Origin: Candidatus Sungiibacteriota bacterium
GTDB taxonomy: Bacteria; Patescibacteriota; Minisyncoccia; Sungbacterales; HO2-52-23
Direction: 5' to 3'
NCBI GenBank assembly: GCA_016432465.1
Contig: CP066690.1
Coordinates: 57,233-121,232, forward strand
DNA length: 64,000 nt
In this document: piece after piece, positions 7,461-34,775 of the stretch
Position numbering within the stretch: position 1 is the stretch's first letter
Layout: each line of letters starts with the position of its first letter
Program-made: the position numbers and the translations under genes
Notes under the pieces: model-generated
What the model was told of the DNA's origin: nothing
The model's input: only the letters and a program-made list of their open reading frames with translations
Databases searched by the model: none

Positions 7461-7489
7461 TTGAAATTTAATTTAACACATTGTATAAT
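7461..7489 (+). promoter_or_regulatory. sigma70-like promoter TTGAAA-17-TATAAT
   Basis: ttgaaa 7461-7466, 17-nt spacer, tataat 7484-7489. Confidence 0.45.
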
Positions 7490-7519
7490 AATATAATGAC
7501 TTGGGAGGGGAGGTCAGCA

Positions 7520-7618
7520 ATGGATCTGTGGGCTAAAGAAAAAGTATGTCTTATAAAAGCCTTTGCTTGTACGCTTGTAGCACTTCACAGAGGGCACATG
7601 TCAGCTGCCGAAGCCTAA
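7520..7618 (+). CDS. small ORF (32 aa, Cys/His-containing peptide)
   Basis: strong RBS gggaggggagg 6 nt before ATG 7520; MDLWAKEKVCLIKAFACTLVALHRGHMSAAEA; below ORF-track size cutoff. Confidence 0.25.
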   Translation: MDLWAKEKVCLIKAFACTLVALHRGHMSAAEA

Positions 7619-7776
7619 AAGGAAATAGGTCTCTTACAAGGACAACTAACTGCTGAAGATATTGAAAATGCTAACATGGCAGCCGATCTTATAAACAGTG
7701 GGGCCGCAAAAACATCTACAGAAGCGCTAGCCAAGATTAAAAGTCAATGTATTCATTAACGGTGAGGGGCGATGGT

Positions 7777-8655
7777 TCAACGTCGCCCTTTTAACTTATC
7801 TTCTGACCCAAAAAGTCTTAATTTCTCTTTCACTAATTCCTTCATAGCAACAATTGCGCTCTGGTCAAGCTTATACATCGCCACTTCATCTAATTCTGTA
7901 GCCAAGCTTTCTTTTAGCGCGTTCACAAACGCCAGGCGAAGCTCGGTTGAAATATGGATATTGGCGATTCCGGCCTCAATAGCGGCCCTAATTTGGTCTT
8001 CCGGAATTCCGGAGCCGGCATGAAGCACTAATGTTACTTCTTTAGAGATACGCTCGCGGATTGCTTTAATGCGGGCAATATCAAGATGTGGTTCGTTCAA
8101 AGAAATTCCGTGTATGTTGCCAACCGCAATCGCCAGACGATCCACACCTGTTTCTTTTACAAAACGTTCCGCCTCCTCGGGCTTGGTTAAGCTCTCCGGC
8201 GGGATTTCAAAAACTTCTTTATATACTTTTGATGCTTCGGTAACAAAATAGCCAACCTCGCCTTCTACGGATATGTCTTTATCTTTTTCTCTTGCGGATG
8301 CTACTATTTCTTTGGTGCCCCCAATGTTATCTTCAAGCGAGAGTTTGGAAAGATCAATATGCACTGAATCGTATCCGGCTTCAACTGTTTCTTTGGCAGA
8401 CTCTACGCTTTTACAATGATCCGCATTCAAAAAAATTGGAATGCCAAAATCTTTTCGGAAGGCATCCCGAACAGCAAGCGCTTCAATAAGCCCCATATGC
8501 TTTCTTTCTCCTTCCGAAGTGCCAATGATCGCCGGAGCGCCGACTTCTTTGCAAGCTTCCGCAATCGCCCGAACTTGATCAAATTCAGAGGCGTTAAAAT
8601 GCCCAGTACTCCAATGTTCCTGACTTGCATGCTGTAAAATTTCTTTAAGTGTCAT
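7777..8655 (-). CDS. fba: class II fructose-bisphosphate aldolase
   Basis: MTLKEILQ...HFNASEF...NADHCKS... class II FBA/tagatose-bisphosphate aldolase signature residues. Confidence 0.85.
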   Translation of the reverse strand: MTLKEILQHASQEHWSTGHFNASEFDQVRAIAEACKEVGAPAIIGTSEGERKHMGLIEALAVRDAFRKDFGIPIFLNADHCKSVESAKETVEAGYDSVHIDLSKLSLEDNIGGTKEIVASAREKDKDISVEGEVGYFVTEASKVYKEVFEIPPESLTKPEEAERFVKETGVDRLAIAVGNIHGISLNEPHLDIARIKAIRERISKEVTLVLHAGSGIPEDQIRAAIEAGIANIHISTELRLAFVNALKESLATELDEVAMYKLDQSAIVAMKELVKEKLRLFGSEDKLKGRR

Positions 8656-16770: not shown

Positions 16771-17482
16771 TTTTTAGTTGATTAACCGCAGTTTGAATAT
16801 CGAAACTATTAAAAATATAAGCTCCGGCCACAAGCAAATTAGCCCCTGATTCAACGGCTTTTTTGGCTGTTTCGGGGTTTATCCCCCCATCTACCTCTAT
16901 TATACACCCGGGGCAGGATTTGCGAATGTGGATAATTTTATCGTAAATTTCTTCCTGTATTTGCTGGCCAGAAGGGCCGGGGTGAACGGCCAAAGTCTGA
17001 TAGATATCAACTTTTTTAAACCATGGCTCAAGCTTTCCCCAAAATGTTTCCGGGTTTATAGCTAAACCTACTTCTACATCGGCCTCACGGCATTTTTTAA
17101 CAATCAAGTCTATGTCGGATACGGCTTCCAAATGGACAATGACGCGTTTTATTGGTTTAACCAGCCATTGGTCAATAACTTTCTCCGGTTCGCTGACCAT
17201 CAAATGAACCTCTACATTCAACTTTGTATCCAAAAGTGGCAAATCCGCAGGATTGTGCCACGTTAAATGTTTAGAAAAAATGCCATCCGTAACATCAAGG
17301 TGGCACCATTTAACATAGGGCTCTACTTTTTTAACCCGTTCCTGCACCTCCTCAAAAGTGCGGACGTTGATGGAGGGGATAATTTCAATTCGGTTCAAAG
17401 TTATAAGTTTAAAGTTAAGGTTACAAGTTTTTAGTCTAAGTTTTAACCTTAACAATAAACTAAAAACTAAAACTTTGAACAT
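16751..17482 (-). CDS. rpe: ribulose-phosphate 3-epimerase
   Basis: RPE fold conservation (IIPSINV..., HLDVTDG, VHLMV, EVDGGI); annotated N-terminal 30 aa are encoded by a palindromic repeat, true start probably near 17388 (TTG). Confidence 0.8.
   Translation of the reverse strand: MFKVLVFSLLLRLKLRLKTCNLNFKLITLNRIEIIPSINVRTFEEVQERVKKVEPYVKWCHLDVTDGIFSKHLTWHNPADLPLLDTKLNVEVHLMVSEPEKVIDQWLVKPIKRVIVHLEAVSDIDLIVKKCREADVEVGLAINPETFWGKLEPWFKKVDIYQTLAVHPGPSGQQIQEEIYDKIIHIRKSCPGCIIEVDGGINPETAKKAVESGANLLVAGAYIFNSFDIQTAVNQLKNVSFTR
17392..17480. repeat. AT-rich nested-palindrome element (aagtttaaagttaagg... family)
   Basis: gttcaaagtt...aactttgaac and aagttaaggtt...aaccttaac arms; related copies inside 23S gene. 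Confidence 0.6.
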
Positions 17483-17493
17483 TAAACATTAAA

Positions 17494-17949
17494 CTATCGA
17501 AAATTATGCTCCTCAATCTCCTCAATTTTCTTGAGCCGCCTAATGTGCCTTTCCTCACCACTAAAACTCTTTCCCAACCACACAGTCACAATATCTTTTG
17601 CCTCTTCCGACTCCAGCCAATCCGAGGCAAGAATCAAAACATTAGCATCCTCGTGTTCACGTGATTGCGCCGCAACCTGCCGGTTAAAGCATAAAGCCGC
17701 CCGAATGGAGCGGTATTTATCGGCAACCATATTCATTCCGTGCCCGGAGCCGCAAATAAAAATCCCCTTATGCAATGACGGGTTCTCTGCTATCTTTTCA
17801 GATGCCTCACGAGCAAAATCCACATAATCGTCATCTTTGTCGTAAGAAAATGCGCCCACGTCCTCAACCTCGTGTCCCTGCTCAACTAAATATTTTTTAA
17901 GCTCTTCTTTTAGCTTAAACCCCCTGTGGTCCGCGGCAAAGTAGATCAT
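17494..17949 (-). CDS. rpiB: ribose-5-phosphate isomerase B
   Basis: MIYFAADHRGFKLKEEL... and CGSGHGM motif of RpiB/LacAB family. Confidence 0.85.
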   Translation of the reverse strand: MIYFAADHRGFKLKEELKKYLVEQGHEVEDVGAFSYDKDDDYVDFAREASEKIAENPSLHKGIFICGSGHGMNMVADKYRSIRAALCFNRQVAAQSREHEDANVLILASDWLESEEAKDIVTVWLGKSFSGEERHIRRLKKIEEIEEHNFR

Positions 17950-20868: not shown

Positions 20869-21206
20869 CTCCCATTCACCTCCTTTCTGAAGAACTAAAT
20901 TCCCGTGGCGGAATTGCCACGGGAATTATTTTCCAAAAGTTTTTGATTAAAACCTTCTTAGTTTAGACAATAATTTCCATGGCAAAATATTGCAAAACAC
21001 CGCAACGACGTGCGGTTCGCTTCACATTATTAAACATGGAACAAAGTTGCTGCATAATAATTGATCTTGGGTGCTAGCAATGGTATTCCGGCCCGCGCTT
21101 CGCTGAAGCTTCGGCGAGGCGAGCAAACCCTATCCAGCACATAACAAGTTATGTACTGGACTCCGTTCTCCCGCTTTCAGCGGGATCACTTCGCTTTCCC
21201 AACATT

Positions 21207-21325
21207 ACTGGCGTACCCTACTTTCCCAGGCGCGGATTGGCACCAAGTATCATTGGGCCTAGATGCTTTCACTACTGAGTTCGGAATGGAATCAGGTGGA
21301 TCACATCTAGGTAAAACACCAGCAA
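21207..21325 (-). rRNA. rrf: 5S ribosomal RNA
   Basis: reverse complement matches 5S core CCACCTGAttCCATtCCGAACTCAGtAGTGAAA...GCGCCTGGGAAAGTAGG; terminal helix pairs. Confidence 0.85.
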
Positions 21326-21713
21326 AGTTCGGAATGCGAAACCAAACTTAACTTGGCGAGTCTCACCATATATTTTTGAGAAACTTCTCAAAAATTTATA
21401 GGCGGGCAGGTAATTAATGATCTATTAGTATCGCTCGGCTAAACGCATTGCTGCGCTTACACCTGCGACCTATCAACGTAGTCATCTTCTACGGATCTAA
21501 TACTAGCGGACATCAGAAATCGGAGATCGGAAATCAGAAAAGTTCTGACGTCTGATTTCTGAAATCTGAAGTCCGCTAGTTCGATACCTAATCTTGAGGC
21601 GTGCTTCGCACTTATATGCTTTCAGCGCTTATCACAACCGAACATAGCTACCCAGCGGTGCTCCTGGCGGAACAGCTGGTACACCAGAGGTTCGTTCATC
21701 CCGGTCCTCTCGT

Positions 21714-22354
21714 CACATTTTCTTCTATCACTAGAAGTGTAGACTATATCTTTGCCCCTTTGGATTTTGATCTAAAGTCGGGCATCGGCATATTATAATC
21801 AAGAATTTTCTTGACTATCCGTCCCGGCAATGCCGGGAACAAGTCGTTACGGGGTCATATTGACAAATTCTAGTATATCATGTAATAATGATATCGCCGA
21901 AATGAAAGGAGGACTCATGGCCCGAGAGTTGGTCGTTGACATGTTCTATTCAACGATTAAGACACCATGGATTACCTGCGATAAGTGTGGCTTTAAAGCA
22001 AAACAGTCAGATCTCAGATATGACGGATATTATAAGGATCATTCTGGTTTTAACCACCATTTTCACTGTCCAAGGTGTTATGAGTCTATTTTAATACCAA
22101 GCCTTTTATAGGCGGTATCATCAACCATTGCTCCTGACTTCCCGGGAGCATTTTTTTGTCAATTGACTTCCCACGGTATTAACTTTAGTATGTTTGATCG
22201 AAGTTCTCGGACCGCGAGATTTCTTCGCAAACTAAAGCATCCATGGCTAAGCCGAGTTTGACTCGGCCGCCATCCCGTCCCGCTTTTAGCGGGATTAGGG
22301 ACCGTTATTAGCCAAATTGTCATCGCGCATTACTGCGCGAAGTAGCAATACTTT
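21714..22354 (-). mobile_element. group-I-like intron in 23S at sarcin-ricin loop (exons rejoin to CCUAGU|ACGAGAGG)
   Basis: 5' exon ends in U, insertion ends in G, removal restores conserved CCUAGUACGAGAGGACC; 641 nt. Confidence 0.6.
21917..22111 (+). CDS. small zinc-ribbon protein encoded antisense inside 23S intron
   Basis: TTGACA-17-TAATAA promoter at 21860-21888, RBS aaaggagg 21905-21912, ATG 21917, CDKCG...CPRC motifs, hairpin+T7 terminator 22150-22178. Confidence 0.45.
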   Translation: MARELVVDMFYSTIKTPWITCDKCGFKAKQSDLRYDGYYKDHSGFNHHFHCPRCYESILIPSLL

Positions 22355-22405
22355 ACTAGGGACGACCCCTCTCAAGTATCAACGCCTGTGGTAGATAGGA
22401 GACCA

Positions 22406-22439
<34 letters not shown>

Positions 22440-22444
22440 GACTT

Positions 22445-22493
<49 letters not shown>

Positions 22494-22509
22494 AAGTCGA
22501 GCCGACATC

Positions 22510-23130
22510 GTATGTTCGCTTCGCTCACAACGCGATACCAATATACGAATGGCATGCGAATGATACGAATTGCGAATTTCCTCTATTACTAGAGGCATGG
22601 ACTATATCTTCATCCCCCTGCATGCCTGCGGAAGGAGCTCGCGTATTATATTTTGCTTAAAGCAAAATATCTTTCCGAACTTTATTCGGAAAAGTCTCTA
22701 CGGGGTTAATGCTTTTTTTATAGAAGCTCTGGTTTCAGCAAACTTAGCGACATCTTGAATAGCTTGCTGAATTTCAGTTTCAATAATATCAACCGGTCGT
22801 TTCCCTGAATCAATCTCCGCATCAGTCCAATTTCTACGACCAATCGGGTCTTCCAATTGTTGAAGTCGTGCAACGAGCCTTGACGATGCCTCGCTCAACA
22901 AAAGATTATTTTCTTCCAATTGATTCAGAAGTTCTTGGTTGTTTAATTGTAATTCTTCTTTCATATGCATAACTTCCCTCGGTATTATCCTATCAAATTT
23001 GGTTCAAAAACTCAATAGGATTTCACCGATATTAGCGAGATTTTTATGCAGGATTACTCCTGCAGCACCCCGATGATCGTGATGGCCAGTCACGTGCAAA
23101 CTAGTTAACCAGAGAACTAGCTAACTAATA
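22510..23130 (-). mobile_element. intervening sequence in 23S near the conserved ...CACCUC/GAUGUCGG... peptidyl-transferase segment (intron class undetermined)
   Basis: conserved GGCACCUC and GAUGUCGGCUC exon blocks separated by ~620 nt; boundaries lack canonical group I/II termini. Confidence 0.5.
22698..22970 (-). CDS. small coiled-coil protein encoded within 23S intervening sequence (sense to rRNA)
   Basis: 90-aa ORF with RBS gagggaag; heptad-rich; no HE motifs. Confidence 0.35.
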   Translation of the reverse strand: MHMKEELQLNNQELLNQLEENNLLLSEASSRLVARLQQLEDPIGRRNWTDAEIDSGKRPVDIIETEIQQAIQDVAKFAETRASIKKALTP

Positions 23131-23511
23131 AACTATTGTTGAGGTGCCGAACTCCGCCGTCGATATGAACTCTTGGGCGGAACTAGCCTGTTATCCCCAG
23201 AGTAGCTTTTGTCTGATAATCTTTGGCCTTGTTCTAGAAAGCGATAAATACCCACACCTCGGAACTGAATCCGAAGCGTGAATAATTACCATGGCCATCG
23301 GTTCACTAAGCTCTGCTTTCGCACCTGCGCGGGATATCCCCCTTGCAGTCAAGCCGGCTTGTGCCTTTACACGTCCACCCCGATTTCCATCCGGGGTAAG
23401 CCGACCTTAATAGACCACTCCATTACTTTTTGGGAGTGTAGTGCCCCACCAAAACTGCCCACCAGACACTGTTCCAGTTGGGCTTCACCGCGAAGCCCAC
23501 AGTTAAGTTTA

Positions 23512-23640
23512 AGGTTAAAAGTTTATTGTTAAGGTTGTGAGTTGTTAGTTTAAGTTAATGTTTAACCTAAACCAAAAACTTACAACCTAAACTTACAGGT
23601 TGCCAGAGCAACCGAAACTTTAAACTTAAAACTGTCGTGT
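23512..23640. repeat. AT-rich nested-palindrome element inside 23S
   Basis: gttaaggttgtgag...tttaagttaatgtttaacctaaac... related to 25185, 27305, 27843 copies. Confidence 0.55.
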
Positions 23641-24027
23641 GAACACTGCGGTGTTCCCAACCGGTTAGAATTTAAAACTTCAAAGAGTGGTATTTCACTG
23701 ACGGCTCCTCTTGATCCGGAAACCAAGAATCAAAGCCTGCCACCTATGCTACGCATCAAAGTTCTAAACCCAATATCAAGTTGCAGTAAAGCTTCTGGGG
23801 TCTTTTCGTCTAACCACAGGTATCCGGCATCTTCACCGGAATTGTATTTTCACCGGGCTCCTCGTTGAGACAGTCCCCTAGTCGTTACGCCTTTCGTGCG
23901 CTTCAGAACTTACCTGAAAAGGAATTGCGCTCAATTACGTTATCACCGAGCACTCAATTTTGGATTTGACAAAATTGTCAAAATTGGTTATGTTGAATAT
24001 GGTACGTTCTACCTACTGGAGGTAAAC

Positions 24028-24237
24028 ATGAAGTTCAAGGACTTGGAGATTGGGGATCATTTTGTTCTCCCAAACCATATCCCAACCAGGAACGGTATCC
24101 CTTCACCCATCGATGCTGTACAGCTTGAGGTTTTTCGTAGGATCACCACTCATGGACGCATTAACGTGCTGTCCGTAAAATCTTTGGCTCCAGGATACGT
24201 TAACCATAACGCTCCGGTCATCAAACTTATCATGTGA
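24028..24237 (+). CDS. small protein (69 aa) encoded antisense inside the L1931 intron
   Basis: TTGACA(23966-23971)-17-TATGTT promoter, RBS ggaggt 24018-24023, ATG 24028, stop 24237, hairpin gccaccgccggtggc + TTTTT 24242-24262; cassette bounded by perfect 18-nt inverted repeat 23946-23963 / 24270-24287. Confidence 0.45.
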   Translation: MKFKDLEIGDHFVLPNHIPTRNGIPSPIDAVQLEVFRRITTHGRINVLSVKSLAPGYVNHNAPVIKLIM

Positions 24238-24348
24238 TTTCGCCACCGCCGGTGGCATTTTTAAATAATCCAAAATTGAGTGCTCGGATCCTCTATGTCG
24301 CCATAGAGATCGGACTATATCTTACAAACAGAAGTCAGGTGTTGGAAA

Positions 24349-24912
24349 TCAGAAGTCAGAATGCTTCCGACTTCCAATATCCGATGTCTGATATCTGTTG
24401 TTCTGGCGTATAGTCTCTGAGGATTCAAGATATTGAGATGGTTTCTTACGATTCATTTGCTCTACTGTCCTCGCAATTTCTTTCATACCCTTCTTGGTTA
24501 GATGGATTTTCCGTTCCATCATATCAAGAATTTTTATGAATCGTTTGAAGTCACTTTGTTTTGCAGTACGGAGCGGATATTTCTGAAAGAAAGGAATTAT
24601 TTTCTCACGTATATCTTTCGTAGACCTAACACAATAACGATATAGCGGTTCACGGTGATTATCGTAACGCTTATTGATGAAAATTTTTCCGCAGCCGAAG
24701 AATTTTTGTAATTCTTCAAGAGCGAATAAACTTTTTTCACCTTGCGTTACCACAAACTCCGGAAAAACCTGCCATCCATTTTTAAGAATCCTATTACGAA
24801 AGACTCCTACAGAGAAACATCCTTCTCCGTCTACAAAACCAGTTATCCATCCCAAATAATAATCTTGCCTTTCCTGCTGATTATCTGCACTGGACACATT
24901 TTTACTTGGCAT
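24349..24912 (-). CDS. LAGLIDADG homing endonuclease (single-motif type)
   Basis: LGWITGFVDGEGCF dodecapeptide motif, 187 aa, inside intron and sense to rRNA. Confidence 0.85.
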   Translation of the reverse strand: MPSKNVSSADNQQERQDYYLGWITGFVDGEGCFSVGVFRNRILKNGWQVFPEFVVTQGEKSLFALEELQKFFGCGKIFINKRYDNHREPLYRYCVRSTKDIREKIIPFFQKYPLRTAKQSDFKRFIKILDMMERKIHLTKKGMKEIARTVEQMNRKKPSQYLESSETIRQNNRYQTSDIGSRKHSDF

Positions 24913-25184
24913 AATTTTAGAAGATTTTATCCCCTAAGGATAATTATACCTTAGTAGTGCCAGATACTCCAGACTTTCCAGCATATAGTCCCGACGTTTC
25001 ATCTAAAAATTAGGATGAAGAAGTCGGGATCCCGATTTTACACTATGATTATTTTATAAATAGTGCATCGGGACCAGATTTTATTAAAGCAGCGCGCTTT
25101 CTACTTTAAGACCCTTATAGTTAGGGCCGACATTGACGAGGGCTTGATACCTAGAGCCGCGAGGCGGCCTCGTATGTTTATAAG

Positions 25185-25325
25185 TTTGTAGTTAAAAGTT
25201 TTGAGTTTAAGTTAAAAGTGATTAGTTTAAGTTAACGTTAACCTAAACATTAAACTAAAAACTTAAACTTAGGAGGCCGCTAGGCCGGAACCTAGAACTA
25301 AAAACTATAAACTAATCGAGGTCGC
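25185..25325. repeat. AT-rich nested-palindrome element inside 23S (near E. coli ~1860)
   Basis: ...gtttaagttaaaagtgattagtttaagttaacgttaacctaaac...cttaggaggccgctaggccggaacc... Confidence 0.6.
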
Positions 25326-26151
25326 CCCGCGACCAAGGTATTTAACCTTCTCGCATTGGTCAGGCGTCACCCCCCATACATCCTCTTACGAGTTAGCGGG
25401 GAGCTGTGTTTTTGGTAAACAGTCGCCAGGGGTACTTTTGTTGCAGCCCCTAAGCCCTTGCGGGCCGGGGCAGACCTTATTGCGAACTTACGGTCGCTTT
25501 TTTGCCGAGTTCCTTAACGAGGAATCACCCATTCGCCTTAGTGTTCTCCACCAACCCACCTGTGTCGGTTTACGGTACGGTCGCATGCTGATATTTTAGA
25601 CGGTTTTCTGGGAAACGCGCTTTGCAAAATTTCTAATGGATTGCTCCAAAAGATTTTCTCCGCGCTTGGAACCGAGCATTACCTCCATGGACGGATTTTC
25701 CTATCCACGTTCCTTACGCTAAGAACGAAAATCCAATAATTCGCTTTGCATACTGCGTTCCGTTACGCCATCAAAACAACATGCGGTGCTGGAATATTAA
25801 CCAGCTGTCCATCAGCTACGGCTTTCGCCATTGCCTTAGGACCGACTAACCCTCAGTTGATTGCCATTGCTGAGGAAACCTTGGGTTTTCGGCGGTCCGG
25901 GCTTTCACCGGACTTGCGGTTACTTGTGCCAACATTCTCTCTTCTTAACGCTCCAGTCGCCCTCGCGGGTCAACCTTCACTGCATTAAGAATGCTCTTCT
26001 ACTGCTTGCGCAACTGCCAATTGCCAACCGCTAACTCTTAATTTTTATTAGAAATTAGAAGTTAGAAATTCGAAGTTGCGCAAGCCCGTAGCTTCGGTAC
26101 AACGCTTAGCCCCGAGTATCTTTGGTGCAGTGTCTCTAGACGAGTGAGCTG

Positions 26152-26194
<43 letters not shown>

Positions 26195-26923
26195 CGCTGT
26201 TTGAGAAACTCCACCGCCTTATTACACTTAGCGTTGATTTAGGGACCTTAGCTGACGATCTGGGCTGTTGCCCTCTTGCACGATGGAGCTTAGCCCCCAC
26301 CTGCTGACTCTTGGAATAACTATACGCGCATTCGGAGTTTGGTTGGTTCGCCGAGCTTTCGCCCTTACGAACCATCCAGTAGCTCTACCTCGCGTATCGT
26401 ATAATCCAAGGCTAGCCCAAAAGCTATTTCGAAGAGAACCAGCTATTACCAGATTCGATTAGCTTTTCACTCCTTACCACAGGTCATCCGAAGGCGTTGA
26501 ACGACCCACCGGTTCGGGCCTCCCCCCGATGTTACTCGGGGTTCACCCTGCCCATGGCAAGCTCATCTGGCTTCGGGTCTTTTGAATACTACCTACAAAA
26601 GCTTCTTAGCTTATAGCTTCCTAGCTTCCTAGGAACGAAAATAAACTCGCACCTAAAAAGCTAAGAAGCTAAAAAGCTAGAAAGCTATTGAAAACGCGCT
26701 ATTAACACTCGGTTTCCCTACGACTCGGTGCCTCGCGGCACTTAGTCAAGCAGTATCCAAAAACTCGTTGGCTCATTCTTCAATAGGCACCACAGCAGAG
26801 ATCAGAGGTCGGATGTCGGAAATCAGAATTTTAGTTCCGACTTCTGATTTCCGATCTCTGATCTCCTTTGTGTCCTTGTAAGCATATGGTTTCAGGTACT
26901 ATTTCACCGCCCTCACCGGGCTG

Positions 26924-26962
<39 letters not shown>

Positions 26963-27304
26963 GTTCCGGGAGTATTTAGCCTTGGCGGACTAGTTCCGCC
27001 TGCTTCCTGCCCAGTCTCCATACGGGGCAGTACTCAAGAACCCCGACGCACTATTAGAAATCTAACAATGAAGTCGGGGTCCCGACTTTACGTCGGGATA
27101 ATAACTAGGAGCATGCAATATTTTTCAAATACGGGGCTTTCACCCTCTTTGGCCGGCCTTTCCAGGGCCGTTCTTCTAAATAAATCGCAACTTTTTGCTC
27201 CTTCGGATCGCTCCGAGCGCTATTATCTTACAACCTCCCGGTCTCCATTAAATAAATTCAATAGAAACCGGGATTTGGGCTGATCCCTTTTCGCTCGCCG
27301 CTAC

Positions 27305-27450
27305 TGGGGGAATATATCAGTTTATAGTTAAAGGTTTTAAGTTTAAGTTAAAAGTTATTAGTTTAAGTTAGCGTTAACTTAAACTTTAAACTAAAAACTT
27401 AAACTTAGGAGGCCGTTAGGCCGTAACCTAAAACTAAAAACTGACATTCT
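27305..27450. repeat. AT-rich nested-palindrome element inside 23S (near E. coli ~200)
   Basis: ~95% identical to copy at 27843-27975. Confidence 0.65.
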
Positions 27451-27507
27451 TTTCTTTTCCTCCGCTTACTGAGATGTTTCACTTCAGCGGGTATCGCGCC
27501 AAGCACT

Positions 27508-27695
27508 CATTTCTATACACTTGACAAATTTATAAATATAAACTATGCTAAGATCAACCAAGGGGGTTTGGTTACAACCACCGATAGCCTGGCCCGGTCC
27601 TACCGGACTTCCCAGGCCGCTGGTTGGTTAGACCCCCCTGCCACAGGTTTTCCCTGTGGCCTCTTTTTTGAGTACAGAAATGAGTGCTCGGCGAA
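27508..27695 (+). promoter_or_regulatory. antisense promoter-terminator cassette within 23S 5' domain expansion helix
   Basis: IR cgccaagcactcatttct / agaaatgagtgctcggcg flanks TTGACA(27531)-17-TATGCT and hairpin ccacaggttttccctgtgg + CCTCTTTTTT (27636-27668); no ORF with RBS. Confidence 0.4.
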
Positions 27696-27842
27696 TGCGT
27701 TTTACGCAAACGGGTTTCCCCATTCGGACATCGCCGGATCAAAGGTTGCTCGCCACCTCCCCGACGCTTATCGCAGGCACGCCACGTCCTTCATCGCCTC
27801 CGGAACCCTAGGCATCCACCATATGCTCTTAATTAATTCTGT

Positions 27843-27975
27843 TCATAGTTAAAGGTTCTAAGTTTAAGTTAAAAGTTATTAGTTTAAGTTAGCGTTAACT
27901 TAAACTTTAAACTAAAAAACTTGAACTTAGGAGTCTCGCTGTAAGCGGGACGAAACCTGAAACTAAGAACTGATT
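27843..27975. repeat. AT-rich nested-palindrome element in 23S 5' leader
   Basis: near-identical to 27305-27450 copy. Confidence 0.65.
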
Positions 27976-28538
27976 TTACCTGCCCGCCTATAAATTTTTG
28001 CTTATTAGCCAAAAAATTATGGGGCGGGAATACAATTTTTTACTTCGACTATGCTCAGAATTCTAATACTGAGCCTGCCGAAGTATACCTGTTTATTCAG
28101 TTTTCAAGATACTATCCTTATCTGCCATCGGATATCCACCTGCTATAAACGGATATCCGACGGCAGGTAAACCCGCGCACTAATTCTGAAATGGTTTTGT
28201 CTCAACTGAGATTATTTCCGCGGTGTCGCCTCTGTCAAGCTAAACTTGACGTCGGCTCCATCAGTACCAACACTAAAGCCTCAATAGAATTAGTGCGGGG
28301 TCAATTGTCCGTTTCCAAATTTTCTGCGCCTGATGGCTTAAAAATTTGGACGGAACAATTGAAAAACCGCGTAAGTACGCGGCTCTTTCACACAGTATCT
28401 AAAAACTGTAGGCTAAATTTCAATCATTTTTTGAGCCGCTTTATTTTTAAATTGTAGACGGGTTTTCATTGTTATCGCAATTATACTCCCGGCCCCATCT
28501 TGCTGTCAACAATATCTGTGGATAAGCTGTCAAATACA

Positions 28539-30891: not shown

Positions 30892-32886
30892 TCAAAACTT
30901 GACGGTTTCCCCAGGCTTGATTACTCTTTTTTCCTTCTTGGTCTCTGTTTCCGATCCATTTTTTTCTTTTAAGGACTCTTCTAAAACTTTCCTCAATTCA
31001 GAAACGTTGGTTGCCGGATGCTGATTTCCGTTTTCTTTTCTGGCGCCTTCTCGTGGTTTTAATTCTGTTAGCGAGACCGGTCTTGCCCCCTGCGGCGTTT
31101 TGACTATGGGTTGAGAGCGAAGGCCGGGACGCGAGTGCGATGGTTTTATTTCTGAACGGGGTGGCACTGTCTGTTTTTGTTCTCTGCGTTCCGGAAAAGG
31201 ACGCCTAACTTCCGGGCTAAACACTCTGGGATAGCGTTCCTCCTCACGCGGTCTCGCGGCCGATACTGCCTTTTCTGCCGGCCGAGTTCCTGCTCCTGCC
31301 GTAGCGGCAAATTCAATCCCCAGCCCTCCCAAGGTTTGTGAAAAACGCGCCTTTCCAACCTGTGGCATACGTTCGGGCAGAGGCACCAGTTTCCCCTCCT
31401 CAATTTGTTTAAGACAAGTAAAACAATACACAGGCCTTCTGCCGTCTGGTTTAAAAGGCACCGCTGCTGTTTTCCCGCAGTTCCAACAAGTAGTCTCATA
31501 CTTCCCCTCCTCGCCGCTCCCTCCCCCACCCCCGTCATCGCCAACCATACCGCTCCACTGTGTGATTTTTTCCTCTACCTCCGGACGGGACCGGGCATAA
31601 CGCTCCCGGGAAACCTTAATAATTTTCTCTTTGACTGTCGGGTCGGTTTCAAACTGAATGGGCGGCAAAGTCACGGCAGAAAATGGCCGGGAGGTAACTC
31701 CATCCACCATGAGTTTTAGATAAATATTATAGTTGGGCAAACCAATAAGATCCTGCTGCATGAACTCCGGCATAAACTCCTTTTCCAGAAATTCAGCATC
31801 CGCCGCACCCACCCTAAAAGTAATCATGGTGCCCACATTGCCAAAAACAGCATCTCTAACTTTGGTGGACACGTCGGTTACCAACTGTCCCACATATTGA
31901 TGGGCGAGTATCAGGTTCAGGCGATATTTTCGGGCCTCAGAAAGAATGGCAGCAAAAGACTCCGTGGCAAAATTTTGAAACTCGTCAACATAAAGATAAT
32001 AGTCCAGGCGGTCTTCCTCCGGTATACGTACCCGCTCCATGGCGGCGAGCTGAATTTTAGTAATAATCATGGCGCCAAGGAGCTGAGAATTATCTTCCCC
32101 GATTTTGCCTTTGGAAACGTTCACCAACAATATCTTCCCCGTATTCATTATCTCCGGGATGTTAAGTGTGGATGTTGGCTGACCAACAATGTTACGGATA
32201 AATGAGGTATTTAAAAACTGCCCGACTTTATTCTGTATCGGGACAATGGCTTCATTACGAAACTGGTCGCGCCACGTCTCATACTCATGTATCCAAAAAG
32301 ACTTCACCACCGGGTCTTGGACTTTGGCGACAATTTTTTGGCGGTAGTCTTTATCTACCAGAATCCTTGGGATACCCAAAAGGGTTGTACCGGGCGTATC
32401 CAGAAGCGCCAAGATACAATTCTGGAGTATGTATTCCATACGGGCTGACCAGACGTTTGCCCAAATCTTGGTGAAAATTCCCAGAAGGTCCGAAACCACT
32501 AAATGTTTATATTTGGGGTCCGGAACTTCAAGCACGTTGAAACCAATAGGGAACTCCGAGTCCACCGGGTTGAAATAAATCACATCGTTGGTGCGCTCCG
32601 CAGGGATCTGAGCCAACACCTCTTCTACAAATTCACCGTGGGGATCAATAATGCCAATACCTCGTCCGGCCCTGATATCCTGAAGTGCGATATTCTTTAA
32701 AAGCGCTGTCTTGCCCACACCGGTCTTACCAATAACGTACATGTGCTGTCTTCGGTCATTGGTTTTAGTACCAAAAACTCTCTCATTTCCGCGAAAGTTA
32801 CATTTTCCGATGAAAGTTGTATCGTTAGCTTTACCTTTAACGGTCATAACTGTATTAATTATACCATAAATTTTAAGATACGGCAA
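30892..32886 (-). CDS. VirD4/TraG-like P-loop ATPase (AAA_10/T4CP-like) with C-terminal zinc ribbon and disordered tail
   Basis: Walker A GKTGVGKT, Walker B LYVDEF, ILAHQ...QL block; CWNCGK...PVYCFTCL zinc ribbon; paralog of adjacent gene. Confidence 0.5.
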   Translation of the reverse strand: MPYLKIYGIINTVMTVKGKANDTTFIGKCNFRGNERVFGTKTNDRRQHMYVIGKTGVGKTALLKNIALQDIRAGRGIGIIDPHGEFVEEVLAQIPAERTNDVIYFNPVDSEFPIGFNVLEVPDPKYKHLVVSDLLGIFTKIWANVWSARMEYILQNCILALLDTPGTTLLGIPRILVDKDYRQKIVAKVQDPVVKSFWIHEYETWRDQFRNEAIVPIQNKVGQFLNTSFIRNIVGQPTSTLNIPEIMNTGKILLVNVSKGKIGEDNSQLLGAMIITKIQLAAMERVRIPEEDRLDYYLYVDEFQNFATESFAAILSEARKYRLNLILAHQYVGQLVTDVSTKVRDAVFGNVGTMITFRVGAADAEFLEKEFMPEFMQQDLIGLPNYNIYLKLMVDGVTSRPFSAVTLPPIQFETDPTVKEKIIKVSRERYARSRPEVEEKITQWSGMVGDDGGGGGSGEEGKYETTCWNCGKTAAVPFKPDGRRPVYCFTCLKQIEEGKLVPLPERMPQVGKARFSQTLGGLGIEFAATAGAGTRPAEKAVSAARPREEERYPRVFSPEVRRPFPERREQKQTVPPRSEIKPSHSRPGLRSQPIVKTPQGARPVSLTELKPREGARKENGNQHPATNVSELRKVLEESLKEKNGSETETKKEKRVIKPGETVKF

Positions 32887-34317
32887 CTAAATAAGCGGCT
32901 CGGGGTGACTGCCAGTAATTTTATCTTCCTTGGGGAATGAGGTTTTGTGAAAAACCGTTGCTTCTTCCTCTGCCTTAATCAGGCGCCCTACCTCCTCAAC
33001 ATTTACCGCATATTTGCGGCGTGACGATAGTATAATCCTGTCTTTATACGAAGGGTGCGGGGAAGCAAGAACCCCCAAGGTCTCTGCCGAGAACGGATCA
33101 TAAGTCTCACCGTCTATCGTCTCTTTTATGTAGAACTCCTGCGTTCCTAAATTTATCATGTCTTTGGCCTTGAAAACCGGGGTCATCTCAACTTCTAATC
33201 TTGCGGCGTCGTCTCCGCCTACACGAAAGACTATCAGGGTCGCCACGTTGCCCAGAACAGTGGCCATAACGTCAGGGATTAGCTGCGCCGTAAATTGATG
33301 GGCCACGGTAAGATTAAGTCCGTATTTTCTTGCTTCAGCAAAAAGATTAATAAAAGAGGCCGTAACCAGATTATGAAACTCGTCAACATAGAGATAAAAA
33401 TCAATTCTTTTTTCTTCGGGTATTTCGGCCCGCGCCATACCGGCCTGCTTAATTTTGGTGATAAACATGGAACCAAAAAAACTGGAATTCTCCTCGCCCA
33501 ACTTACCCTTAGATAAGTTAATCAGGAGAATTTTTCTATTATTCATTATCCATTCAAAATCAATCTTATTTTCTTTTTGGGCAAAGATATTTCGGAGCAT
33601 GGGCATAGACAAAAACTGTCCAAGTTTATTAACCAGAGGGATGATGGCATCCGTATCAAACTTTTCAGACCAGTCGGCAAACTCCACCGCAAAGAAACGC
33701 TTAACCATATCATCCGTTATGTACTCAATTACTTTTTGGCGATAAGGCCGATCGGTAAGCATAGATATCATTCCCCGCATGGTGGCTTCGGGATAGTCAA
33801 GAAGGGCCAACGTGGTAAAACGAAACACATGCTCAAGGCGCGGCGTCCAGTTGGCGCCAAACTGTTTCTCCATTACCTCAATAAGTCCTTGCGCCATCTG
33901 GTGTTTCATCTCCGGCGGCACTTTTTGCAACGGATTAAAAGAAACCGGCCAGTCATGATCCGAAGGATCAACCAAAACCACATCATCAATCCGTTCCTCT
34001 GGAATAAACTTCAAAATTTCCTCAATCACGTCTCCGTGGGGATCAATAAAACAAAAGCCGTAACCATAAGCGATGTCCTGACGCACCAAAAGCTCCAGCA
34101 ATTTTGATTTCCCTACTCCGGACTTACCCACTATATACACATGGCGCCTGCGATCCTTACGTTTTACGCCAAAGATGTATTTCTTGGTCTCAAGCGGGGC
34201 TTCATAGTTGGTGCGGCCGACAAAAGAAACCGCTCGCGGATCCACCTGCTGATACACGGGCAGCTCCGGCGGCGGAGGCCCATATTTACTTATATGTATT
34301 CTTCCTTCCCGAGCCAT
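32887..34317 (-). CDS. VirD4/TraG-like P-loop ATPase (AAA_10/T4CP-like)
   Basis: Walker A GKSGVGKS, Walker B LYVDEF, TVAHQFTAQL; abuts downstream paralog with no gap. Confidence 0.5.
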   Translation of the reverse strand: MAREGRIHISKYGPPPPELPVYQQVDPRAVSFVGRTNYEAPLETKKYIFGVKRKDRRRHVYIVGKSGVGKSKLLELLVRQDIAYGYGFCFIDPHGDVIEEILKFIPEERIDDVVLVDPSDHDWPVSFNPLQKVPPEMKHQMAQGLIEVMEKQFGANWTPRLEHVFRFTTLALLDYPEATMRGMISMLTDRPYRQKVIEYITDDMVKRFFAVEFADWSEKFDTDAIIPLVNKLGQFLSMPMLRNIFAQKENKIDFEWIMNNRKILLINLSKGKLGEENSSFFGSMFITKIKQAGMARAEIPEEKRIDFYLYVDEFHNLVTASFINLFAEARKYGLNLTVAHQFTAQLIPDVMATVLGNVATLIVFRVGGDDAARLEVEMTPVFKAKDMINLGTQEFYIKETIDGETYDPFSAETLGVLASPHPSYKDRIILSSRRKYAVNVEEVGRLIKAEEEATVFHKTSFPKEDKITGSHPEPLI

Positions 34318-34403
34318 GCTGATGTTGTCTAAATTTATGAGCGAGAATAGATGCCGAGCGTAATAAATTTAGCTACAACATCGAGCACCCTCTCACTCGA
34401 AAA

Positions 34404-34775
34404 TCAACTGAATAAACTATGTTTCAGCCGACGTTTTAAACTAATGTAGGCCTTTGCTCTAAATTTAATCTGTGACTCCCGCTCACGAGCATCTTTCTCA
34501 GACCTGTAGGCCTCGTAATAAATACACTCCAAGGGTCTTCTATTTCTAGTGGAATACACCCTACCCTCATTATGCTCTTTTATTCGTTTACGTAAATCCC
34601 CAGTGTATCCAAAATATAAGTTTTTATCCTTCAGAGATTGCAAAGTGTAGAAATAAAACATAGTGATTTTCGAGTGAGAGGGTAAGGTTTTGTTACCAAA
34701 ATTTGTTCGTCCTACAGACTCCAAATTTTGGACAAAGCCCTTATTAAACAACCTCGCTTTGATAGCACTGCTCAT
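34404..34775 (-). CDS. GIY-YIG nuclease family protein
   Basis: LYFGYTGDLRKRIKEHNEG (GIY...YIG...R...H...E); true start probably internal Met (MFYFYTLQS...). Confidence 0.7.
   Translation of the reverse strand: MSSAIKARLFNKGFVQNLESVGRTNFGNKTLPSHSKITMFYFYTLQSLKDKNLYFGYTGDLRKRIKEHNEGRVYSTRNRRPLECIYYEAYRSEKDARERESQIKFRAKAYISLKRRLKHSLFS

Follow-up and report, generated by a model that had tools for sequence, protein, structure and literature searches.

Antisense transcription units predicted within stem-closed insertions of an intron-rich 23S rRNA gene from the candidate phyla radiation

The stretch of DNA analysed here, 64,000 nucleotides (nt) of contig CP066690.1 from Candidatus Sungiibacteriota bacterium (assembly GCA_016432465.1, positions 57,233 to 121,232 of the forward strand) and called the window below, holds a complete 23S rRNA gene on its minus strand (21417..27842), delimited with the Rfam LSU model and by aligning the exons to the 23S rRNA of E. 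coli. The gene is approximately 6.4 kb long, contains three group I introns and many helix insertions, and is that of a Saccharibacteria-like bacterium of the candidate phyla radiation (CPR, Patescibacteria). Our subject is a 342-bp module (unit A, 23946-24287) that is nested in one of these introns and carries a small protein gene in the direction opposite to the rRNA, together with two more units of the same architecture, units B and D, in the same 23S gene.

The intron that hosts unit A lies at position L1931 (1171 nt, 23932..25102, minus strand) and is defined by its exon junction, the P1 and P10 pairings, its core and its homologues. In a BLAST alignment to E. coli 23S the exons break between U1931 and A1932, exon 1 ending at 25103 and exon 2 starting at 23931; the E. 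coli copy used has 2903 nt, one short of the standard, and 1 was added to its numbering after a check on helix 69. At 25103 the 5' exon finishes with ...UUAAAGU; the intron runs from AGAAAGCGCGCUGCUUUAA to ...AAUUG, its terminal G at 23932, and the 3' exon opens with AGCGCAAUUCC. P1 pairs GCUUUAA of the intron with UUAAAGU of the exon, with a U.G wobble at the splice site, and P10 pairs GCGCU of the intron with AGCGC of the 3' exon. The Rfam model RF00028 (Intron_gpI) matches no more than the 3' core (24511..24291), scoring 34.1 bits (E = 1e-6) where the gathering score is 50. Rfam and the alignment of related introns together identify the 3' part of this core (24291..24323, minus strand), made up of the S element AAGAUAUAGUCC, which is the 3' strand of P7, and the P9 hairpin CUCUAUGGCGACAUAGAG; more than 20 homologous introns show no variation in the R and S elements or in the P9 hairpin.

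A single-motif LAGLIDADG homing endonuclease gene of 187 amino acids (aa) is encoded within the intron in the rRNA sense (24349..24912, minus strand; Pfam LAGLIDADG_1, residues 23-128, E = 1.7e-26), so that both the L1931 intron and its sense open reading frame (ORF), as called in the original prediction, are confirmed. The protein is 87% identical to ORFs on contigs of Candidatus Saccharibacteria metagenome-assembled genomes (L008 and L009). Searching one-genome-per-species contigs with it gave 28 loci, the nearest of them on Saccharibacteria contigs whose 23S exons are 83-92% identical to those of the window. With its P1 and P10 pairings, core elements, terminal G and intact endonuclease gene, the host intron looks functional. 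Group I introns at L1931 are also found in Simkania and Thermotoga. The combination of an L1931 intron and a LAGLIDADG endonuclease is already-known CPR biology: position 1931 is the standard CPR site of group I introns encoding LAGLIDADG_1 proteins, and the endonuclease I-ShaI of one such insertion, 23IS7, which we equate with position 1931, has been characterised (PMC11270868). That intron and the present one are alike in their site, in the kind of ribozyme core and in a sense ORF of approximately 180 aa with a single LAGLIDADG_1 domain, but the I-ShaI intron measures 691 nt against the 1171 nt found here.

Close to its 3' end the window intron departs from its relatives. From the S element to exon 2 it has 392 nt, compared with 67-111 nt in all of the approximately 20 related L1931 introns examined. 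The nearest introns (L008, L009, L022 and L044) share the order P9, GGAUC, a covarying hairpin of 5-8 bp and then GUGAUAACGUAAnG|AGCGCAAUUCC, and the stems of this native hairpin in the four are CCCGCC/GGCGGG, CUCCCCG/CGGGGAG, CUCCCG/CGGGAG and CUCUCCGU/ACGGAGAG. The window intron keeps the flanks GGAUC...GUGAUAACG in register, and a 21-bp stem closing 300 nt replaces the short hairpin. Because related introns have only a hairpin of 5-8 bp at this point, unit A is an insertion into the loop of the last hairpin; a hairpin loop is the usual place for intron cargo. Judged by its position in the alignment, the inverted repeat is at the RNA level the equivalent of the native covarying peripheral hairpin (P9.1-like), and since it sits there it would be an RNA stem that insulates the ribozyme at least as much as a transposon end.

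The arms of the repeat lie at 23946..23966 (left) and 24267..24287 (right) and form, in RNA of the rRNA sense, the 3' and the 5' strand of this hairpin respectively. The original prediction described a perfect inverted repeat of 18 nt (23946-23963 / 24270-24287): the repeat is indeed perfect and correctly placed, but its true length is 21 nt, and at 83% it can be followed out to 35 nt. Folding predicts that the 21-bp stem closes unit A in the sense RNA, and the number of arm matches with at most 3 mismatches expected by chance within the window is approximately 0.09. Inside the repeat, and on the plus strand, a sigma-70-type promoter matching the consensus at 10/12 positions (TTGACA(23966)-17-TATGTT(23994), 23966..23994), one of only three of at least 10/12 on this strand of the 23S gene, is followed by a Shine-Dalgarno sequence GGAGGT (24018..24023, with GGAGG at 24018-24022 placed 5 nt from the ATG at 24028), by an ORF of 69 aa (24028..24237) and by an intrinsic terminator (24242..24262) in which the hairpin GCCACCGCCGGTGGC (24242-24256) precedes ATTTTT. 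Each of these signals stands where it had been predicted; the promoter, the Shine-Dalgarno sequence and the terminator are undamaged and rank highest in the region. On sequence evidence, then, the interpretation of unit A as an inserted, self-contained antisense gene is well supported.

The 69-aa protein belongs to a rare but conserved family. Four true homologues came from an exhaustive phmmer search through 1.84 billion representative proteins; a profile search of 5.8 billion clusters brought the total to six, with full-length identities of 40-55%. The top phmmer match (P0001) was discarded as spurious: it is a repeat protein of 1623 aa in which only residues 8-30 were matched, sixteen times. 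The alignment of the seven sequences shows the conserved motif MxFxDLxxGDHFVLPNHIxTRDGxPSP...LEVF...PVIKL and 16 invariant residues, all of which are kept in the intact ORF of unit A. Within the family the proportion of nonsynonymous differences (pN) is 0.3-0.4 and synonymous sites are saturated, and the closest pair gives a ratio of nonsynonymous to synonymous substitution rates (dN/dS) of 0.18. By these substitution patterns the 69-aa ORF is a real conserved gene under purifying selection, and the frame that had been read as a gene in the first place is kept in six other proteins, which answers the refuting condition attached to the original prediction. An AlphaFold2 model (AF2; mean predicted local distance difference test score, pLDDT, 85.5) predicts an SH3-like beta-barrel. 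The protein has no match in Pfam, PHROGs, NCBIfam, PADLOC or PDB sequences, tblastn against phages and plasmids gave nothing meaningful, and the family profile found no loci in the viral, genome or metagenome collections.

The homologues come from short metagenome contigs, where their neighbours differ from case to case, and none of the six genes lies in an rRNA gene or an intron, i.e., they are stand-alone genes. Each of the homologous genes elsewhere (L003-L007, L042 and L043) has its own TTGACA-17-TAnnnT promoter, Shine-Dalgarno sequence and terminator. No repeat comparable to that of unit A flanks them, the matches being only weak, A/T-rich or of 80%. One of the genes (L007) adjoins a transposase-like ORF.

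A third near-copy of the unit A arm, matching at 15/18 positions, led us to a second antisense module, unit B (27497..27693, plus strand; arms 27497-27518 / 27672-27693). This answers a check suggested in the original prediction, whether the repeat-bounded cassette is met elsewhere without the intron: unit B is a related repeat-bounded promoter and terminator module in a helix of the 23S rRNA itself. Its arms, CGCCAAGCACTCATTTCTATAC and GTACAGAAATGAGTGCTCGGCG (CGCCAAGC... and ...GCTCGGCG), match over 22 nt at 91%. The promoter, TTGACA(27521)-17-TATGCT, begins 2 nt inside the left arm, and a strong terminator (27640-27660; GCCACAGG...CCTGTGGC followed by CTCTTTTTT) ends 11 nt before the right arm. 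The payload is a hairpin of approximately 90 nt, which has no ORF and matches no Rfam family. Unit B takes the place of the loop in the 23S helix at E. coli positions 150-176, and the single imperfect position of its stem is a G.U pair in the rRNA sense, which suggests that the stem is constrained as RNA.

Units A and B share their ends and their layout. Their arms share CC[G/A]AGCACTCA...TGAGTGCTCGG, their two ends align at 78% and 76% over approximately 70 columns, and promoter and terminator are placed alike relative to the repeat. The same stem sequence forms, with no cargo, the P8 hairpin (1303-1331) of the nearest related intron, L008, which reads CCGAGCACUCAA-AACG-UUGAGUGCUUCGG and is also written CCGAGCACTCAA-AACG-TTGAGTGCTTCGG. 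A stem of 11-12 nt is thus shared by three unrelated positions: the last hairpin of the first intron, the 23S helix at 150-176 and the P8 of L008.

The third unit is found in a part of the 23S gene that the first Rfam match had left outside. Rfam LSU positions 1-2925 had been forced onto 23046..27842, and when the search was repeated LSU positions 2468-2912 were found at 21417..23200. This second search and the exon alignment place the 3' end of the 23S gene at ~21417 instead of 23046, with two extra introns in between, and the 5S gene follows at 21205-21324. Automated rRNA annotation would therefore cut this 23S gene short by approximately 1.6 kb. The second group I intron, at ~L2500 (22511..23140, minus strand), matches Intron_gpI with 31.7 bits (E = 9e-6). 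It contains an ORF of 90 aa in the rRNA sense (22698-22970, minus strand) that looks like a coiled coil, has no match in Pfam, NCBIfam or PADLOC and is not recognisable as a homing endonuclease. The third intron, at ~L2657 (21714..22353, minus strand; Intron_gpI, 23.2 bits, E = 0.003), interrupts the sarcin-ricin loop (AGUA|CGAGAGGACC) and has no ORF on its sense strand; site 2657 is among the known CPR insertion sites (PMC11270868).

This third intron hosts unit D, the third antisense module (21859..22163, plus strand). It has an 11/12 promoter, TTGACA(21860)-18-AATAAT, a Shine-Dalgarno sequence AAGGAGG, an ORF of 64 aa with a zinc-ribbon-like CxxC...CxxC pattern (21917-22111), and the best terminator of the region (22129-22150, followed by TTTTTTT). 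A perfect 9-nt repeat closes it, giving a stem of ~16 bp around ATTGACAAA/TTTGTCAAT. The 64-aa protein has no homologue, and its zinc-ribbon matches in Pfam and NCBIfam are sub-threshold only. In the predicted folds of the sense RNA a long stem closes each of the three units; the z-scores are -4.4 (A), -10.0 (B) and -8.6 (D). From the places of promoter and terminator, the predicted plus-strand transcripts would span approximately 24001-24262 (A), 27556-27669 (B) and 21896-22157 (D).

The accumulation of such units in one gene is not expected by chance. Using a fixed rule, in which a promoter of at least 10/12 has to be followed by a terminator 40-450 nt downstream, the 6.4-kb 23S gene has three antisense units and no sense units, while 200 dinucleotide-preserving shuffles gave a mean of 0.03 units and a maximum of 1. 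Counting both strands together, the whole window has eight promoter-to-terminator units, and none turned up on the antisense strand when 30 related rRNA loci, together 175 kb, were scanned. The rRNA gene of a genome-reduced CPR bacterium thus hosts three predicted antisense transcription units, two of them protein-coding.

The explanation that we favour, tentatively and at slightly less than an even chance, is that unit A is an antisense module seated in the P9.1-like hairpin loop of an otherwise ordinary L1931 intron, and one of three such units. The 21-bp repeat would lengthen a hairpin that is already present in related introns and hold the insert of ~300 nt off the ribozyme core, and the closing stem would keep it from disturbing the folding of the ribozyme or the ribosome. 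Unit A would leave together with the intron at splicing, so that the rRNA would be unharmed. Each unit would be transcribed from its own promoter, and the antisense orientation would be forced, since an intrinsic terminator facing the other way would abort 23S synthesis. The stem with its chassis of promoter and terminator would have been copied at least once between RNA stem-loops, and unit A would be co-transferred whenever the LAGLIDADG enzyme drives homing of the intron. Each unit would probably yield its product chiefly at times of low rRNA transcription, because it lies head-on to the strongest promoter of the cell and because its mRNA is fully complementary to abundant pre-rRNA and intron RNA; the opposing rRNA promoter is probably the 11/12 site at 28238. 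A much wider claim would take A, B and D for selfish elements of a new class, i.e., stem-bounded antisense expression cassettes (inverted repeat, promoter, a cargo of RNA or a small protein, and terminator) that colonise the helix tips of rRNAs and introns as safe harbours, spread by stem-loop copying and homing, and are expressed inversely to rRNA transcription. We regard this wider claim as unlikely.

Several observations weigh against the nested-module explanation. The flanks of the two repeat-bounded units (...TTATCA|IR...IR|ATCCTC for A and ...TATCG|IR...IR|AATGCG for B, where IR is the inverted repeat) show no visible target-site duplication at either junction, no transposase-encoding element with CCGAGCACTCA-type ends was seen in the 64-kb window, and exact-word scans of the metagenome and viral collections gave no further copy of the repeat. 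The similarity of A and B outside the repeat and the promoter hexamers is modest, at approximately 59% in the AT-rich promoter spacer, and unit D has neither the repeat shared by A and B nor a homologue. All three units are carried by one genome window only. The 69-aa protein is not on record in public assemblies, by a word-indexed protein search, and its structural matches are generic small barrels. Exactly this intron is present on only one other contig, from Logan, which breaks off 7 nt short of the module, as discussed below, and the idea of regulation by growth phase is pure inference.

Units A and B are the only related copies of the repeat within the window. The exact repeat word did match 6 times in metagenome contigs and twice in viral contigs, in each case with a single arm and no other similarity; the one match that was read (L038) lies in coding sequence, and these matches are taken as chance. 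A reading as an inverton, i.e., an invertible promoter, was also set aside, because the repeat encloses the whole unit with its terminator, because a flip would put this terminator in the rRNA sense, and because no recombinase is nearby. The independent mobility proposed in the original prediction is only partly supported: the module is a discrete insertion, as the extra length between S element and exon 2 attests, but no transposase, target duplication or copy outside the gene was found, and mobility is plausible, not demonstrated.

The alternative that survives best does without mobility altogether. A free-standing small gene could have landed once, by illegitimate recombination, in the last hairpin of the intron; the long perfect repeat would then be the native stem lengthened by selection for ribozyme folding, and the likeness to unit B and to the P8 of L008 would come from gene conversion or convergence between hairpins of rRNA operons. 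Such an event would fit a repeat standing exactly where related introns have their native hairpin, homologous genes that elsewhere have a promoter and a terminator of their own and no such repeat, a G.U pair that points to constraint at the RNA level in the stem of unit B, and the lack of any target duplication, transposase or other copy among what was seen. We nevertheless find a one-off capture doubtful, because the same stem of 11-12 nt stands at three unrelated structural positions, because A and B are alike in where promoter and terminator lie relative to the repeat, and because three units in one gene are hard to obtain as independent accidents.

Transposition of DNA could account for the recurrence more directly. 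Miniature inverted-repeat transposable elements (MITEs), mobile insertion cassettes (MICs) such as MIC231, and the Rickettsia palindromic elements are short, lack a transposase, have inverted repeats and sometimes carry a passenger gene, and MITE-like elements are tolerated inside functional genes as they fold out of the way. Units A and B resemble them in having terminal inverted repeats (21 nt and perfect in A, 22 nt at 91% in B), and a non-autonomous transposon with a passenger gene, mobilised by a transposase in trans and using stem-loops as tolerated sites, would explain why unit B looks like another copy that has related ends but a different payload, why the L008 hairpin has the same arms and no cargo, and why the contexts of the cargo gene elsewhere vary, with a transposase-like ORF beside it in one case. 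However, neither A nor B has a visible target duplication, the window has no cognate transposase with these ends, the metagenome and viral collections gave only single chance matches, and the two related copies are both in one rRNA gene. Furthermore, the ends fall exactly at the base of pre-existing RNA helices, which transposition of DNA alone leaves unexplained, and we consider a transposon of this kind improbable.

Unit A might also be a silent relic, a decaying ORF with its signals silenced by head-on rRNA transcription, with B and D being structured AT-rich expansions that resemble promoters. Unit B has no ORF and unit D no homologue, and insertions of unknown function abound in the rRNA genes of CPR bacteria (PMC11270868). 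This sits poorly with an intact ORF that keeps every invariant residue of its family, with a promoter, Shine-Dalgarno sequence and terminator that are intact and top-scoring, and with three promoter-to-terminator pairs where 0.03 are expected, which makes decay quite improbable. A mis-assembly of metagenome reads that joined the module into the intron is very improbable: the 69-aa protein is absent from public gene calls, and intron cores are common to different introns and can chimerise short contigs, but the module takes the exact place of the native hairpin's loop, with the intron in register on both sides and a perfect closing stem, an outcome not to be expected of a chimeric join, and two more units of the same architecture lie in the same 23S gene.

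The Logan contig mentioned above (L001, equal to window positions 25371..24294) encodes the identical LAGLIDADG protein in the same intron. Its break at 24294 was considered as a sign of an allele without the module, and this was rejected, as the break lies inside the conserved P9 that is common to other introns. In a JGI contig (L045), a 23S L1931 intron switches after the same P9 to an exon resembling the 3' end of 16S. Short-read assemblies seem to break, or to form chimaeras, at conserved intron cores, and this is the likely reason for the end of L001.

Returning to the nested-module explanation, the three units can be compared with several known arrangements. TAR1 is a small protein gene of yeast, a eukaryote, antisense to the 25S rDNA and overlapping the mature rRNA sequence; unlike the units described here it is not an inserted, stem-bounded module. 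The intervening sequences (IVSs) of 23S rRNA in Salmonella, Leptospira, Coxiella and other bacteria are likewise extra sequence at helix tips, with a long inverted-repeat stem and sometimes an ORF (PMC4990558). They are regarded as selfish or horizontally spread, by a mechanism of mobility that is unknown (PMC4990558). Unit B sits in an rRNA helix tip as an IVS does, whereas unit A sits in an intron hairpin. The known ORFs of IVSs (S23p / 23S_rRNA_IVP) run in the same direction as the rRNA, lack their own promoter and probably go untranslated (PMC4990558); the present units are antisense, have their own promoter and terminator and, in A and D, a Shine-Dalgarno sequence, and the 69-aa protein has no Pfam match.

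Antisense genes in group I introns of rDNA are known only from eukaryotic nuclei (PMC9548176). Nuclear rDNA introns of fungi and myxomycetes resemble unit A in carrying an antisense gene in a peripheral loop, with expression signals of its own (PMC9548176, PMC3679873). Those genes, however, encode eukaryotic His-Cys box endonucleases, i.e., the mobility gene of the intron itself, and have Pol II signals and spliceosomal introns, whereas unit A has a bacterial host, encodes a protein that belongs to no endonuclease family, and is present in addition to a homing endonuclease gene on the sense strand. IStrons, chimaeras of a group I intron and a transposon of IS200/IS605 type, also have a second element near the 3' end of a bacterial group I intron, with the insertion hidden by splicing (PMC4227781). 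They differ from the L1931 intron in encoding a transposase or TnpB, in having subterminal hairpins of IS605 type and in residing in protein-coding genes (PMC4227781); the L1931 intron has only the LAGLIDADG and 69-aa ORFs, no transposase or TnpB, and ends that are terminal inverted repeats. The CPR survey that described 23IS7 annotated only ORFs with Pfam domains, and its main text does not report antisense units (PMC11270868). We accordingly file the three units as a variant of intron and IVS cargo and as members of none of the systems compared. Antisense units enclosed by a stem within a bacterial rRNA gene are an arrangement that we did not find described for bacteria.

To our knowledge, bacterial group I introns and the IVSs of rRNA have been thought to carry at most a homing endonuclease on the sense strand or an ORF that is probably untranslated. 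If the present units are expressed, self-splicing introns and rRNA helix tips would be carriers and safe harbours for unrelated genes, with homing as a new hitch-hiking route, and CPR rRNA insertions of unknown function may hide genes missed by surveys that combine six-frame translation with Pfam. If they are expressed, transcription convergent with the rRNA promoter would also amount to a built-in growth-rate switch.

Other features of the rRNA region and the window were recorded alongside these units. Two families of hairpins recur in and around the 23S gene. The first, of imperfect, AT-rich hairpins typified by 'TTAAGTTT', is found at 17393-17495, 23500-23620, 25180-25300, 27315-27442 and 27858-27913; it fills three 23S helix insertions and is present outside the 23S gene too. 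The second, 'GGAAATCAGAAGTCGGA', is found near the 23S 3' end (21502-21580), in a helix insertion of domain II (26791-26872) and in P8 of the L1931 intron (24330-24400). Just upstream of the 23S 5' end, in the rRNA sense, a 12/12 consensus promoter is followed by an intrinsic terminator (28357-28509, minus strand). The same order, with the terminator 80-190 nt after the promoter, precedes the 23S gene in many other CPR loci (L010, L012, L014, L015, L016, L018, L021, L024 and L033), and this pair could be a leader or attenuator, or a small RNA gene.

Elsewhere in the window, short promoter-to-terminator units lie on the plus strand at 873-1062 and 7461-7797, with 12/12 and 11/12 promoters respectively; their longest internal ORFs are of 37 and 40 aa, and the units may be small RNA genes. 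An 85-aa ORF for a GIY-YIG nuclease on the minus strand (Pfam, E = 7e-14) is exactly enclosed by a perfect 20-nt inverted repeat (34387-34406 / 34664-34683), its ATG lying 2 nt inside one arm and its stop codon inside the other. This element (34387-34683) is outside the rRNA genes and has no promoter inside the repeat. At 30892-34317 on the minus strand are two tandem genes for VirD4/TraG-like coupling proteins (TrwB_AAD_bind, TraG-D_C), the first of which (30892-32886) has an extra treble-clef zinc finger.

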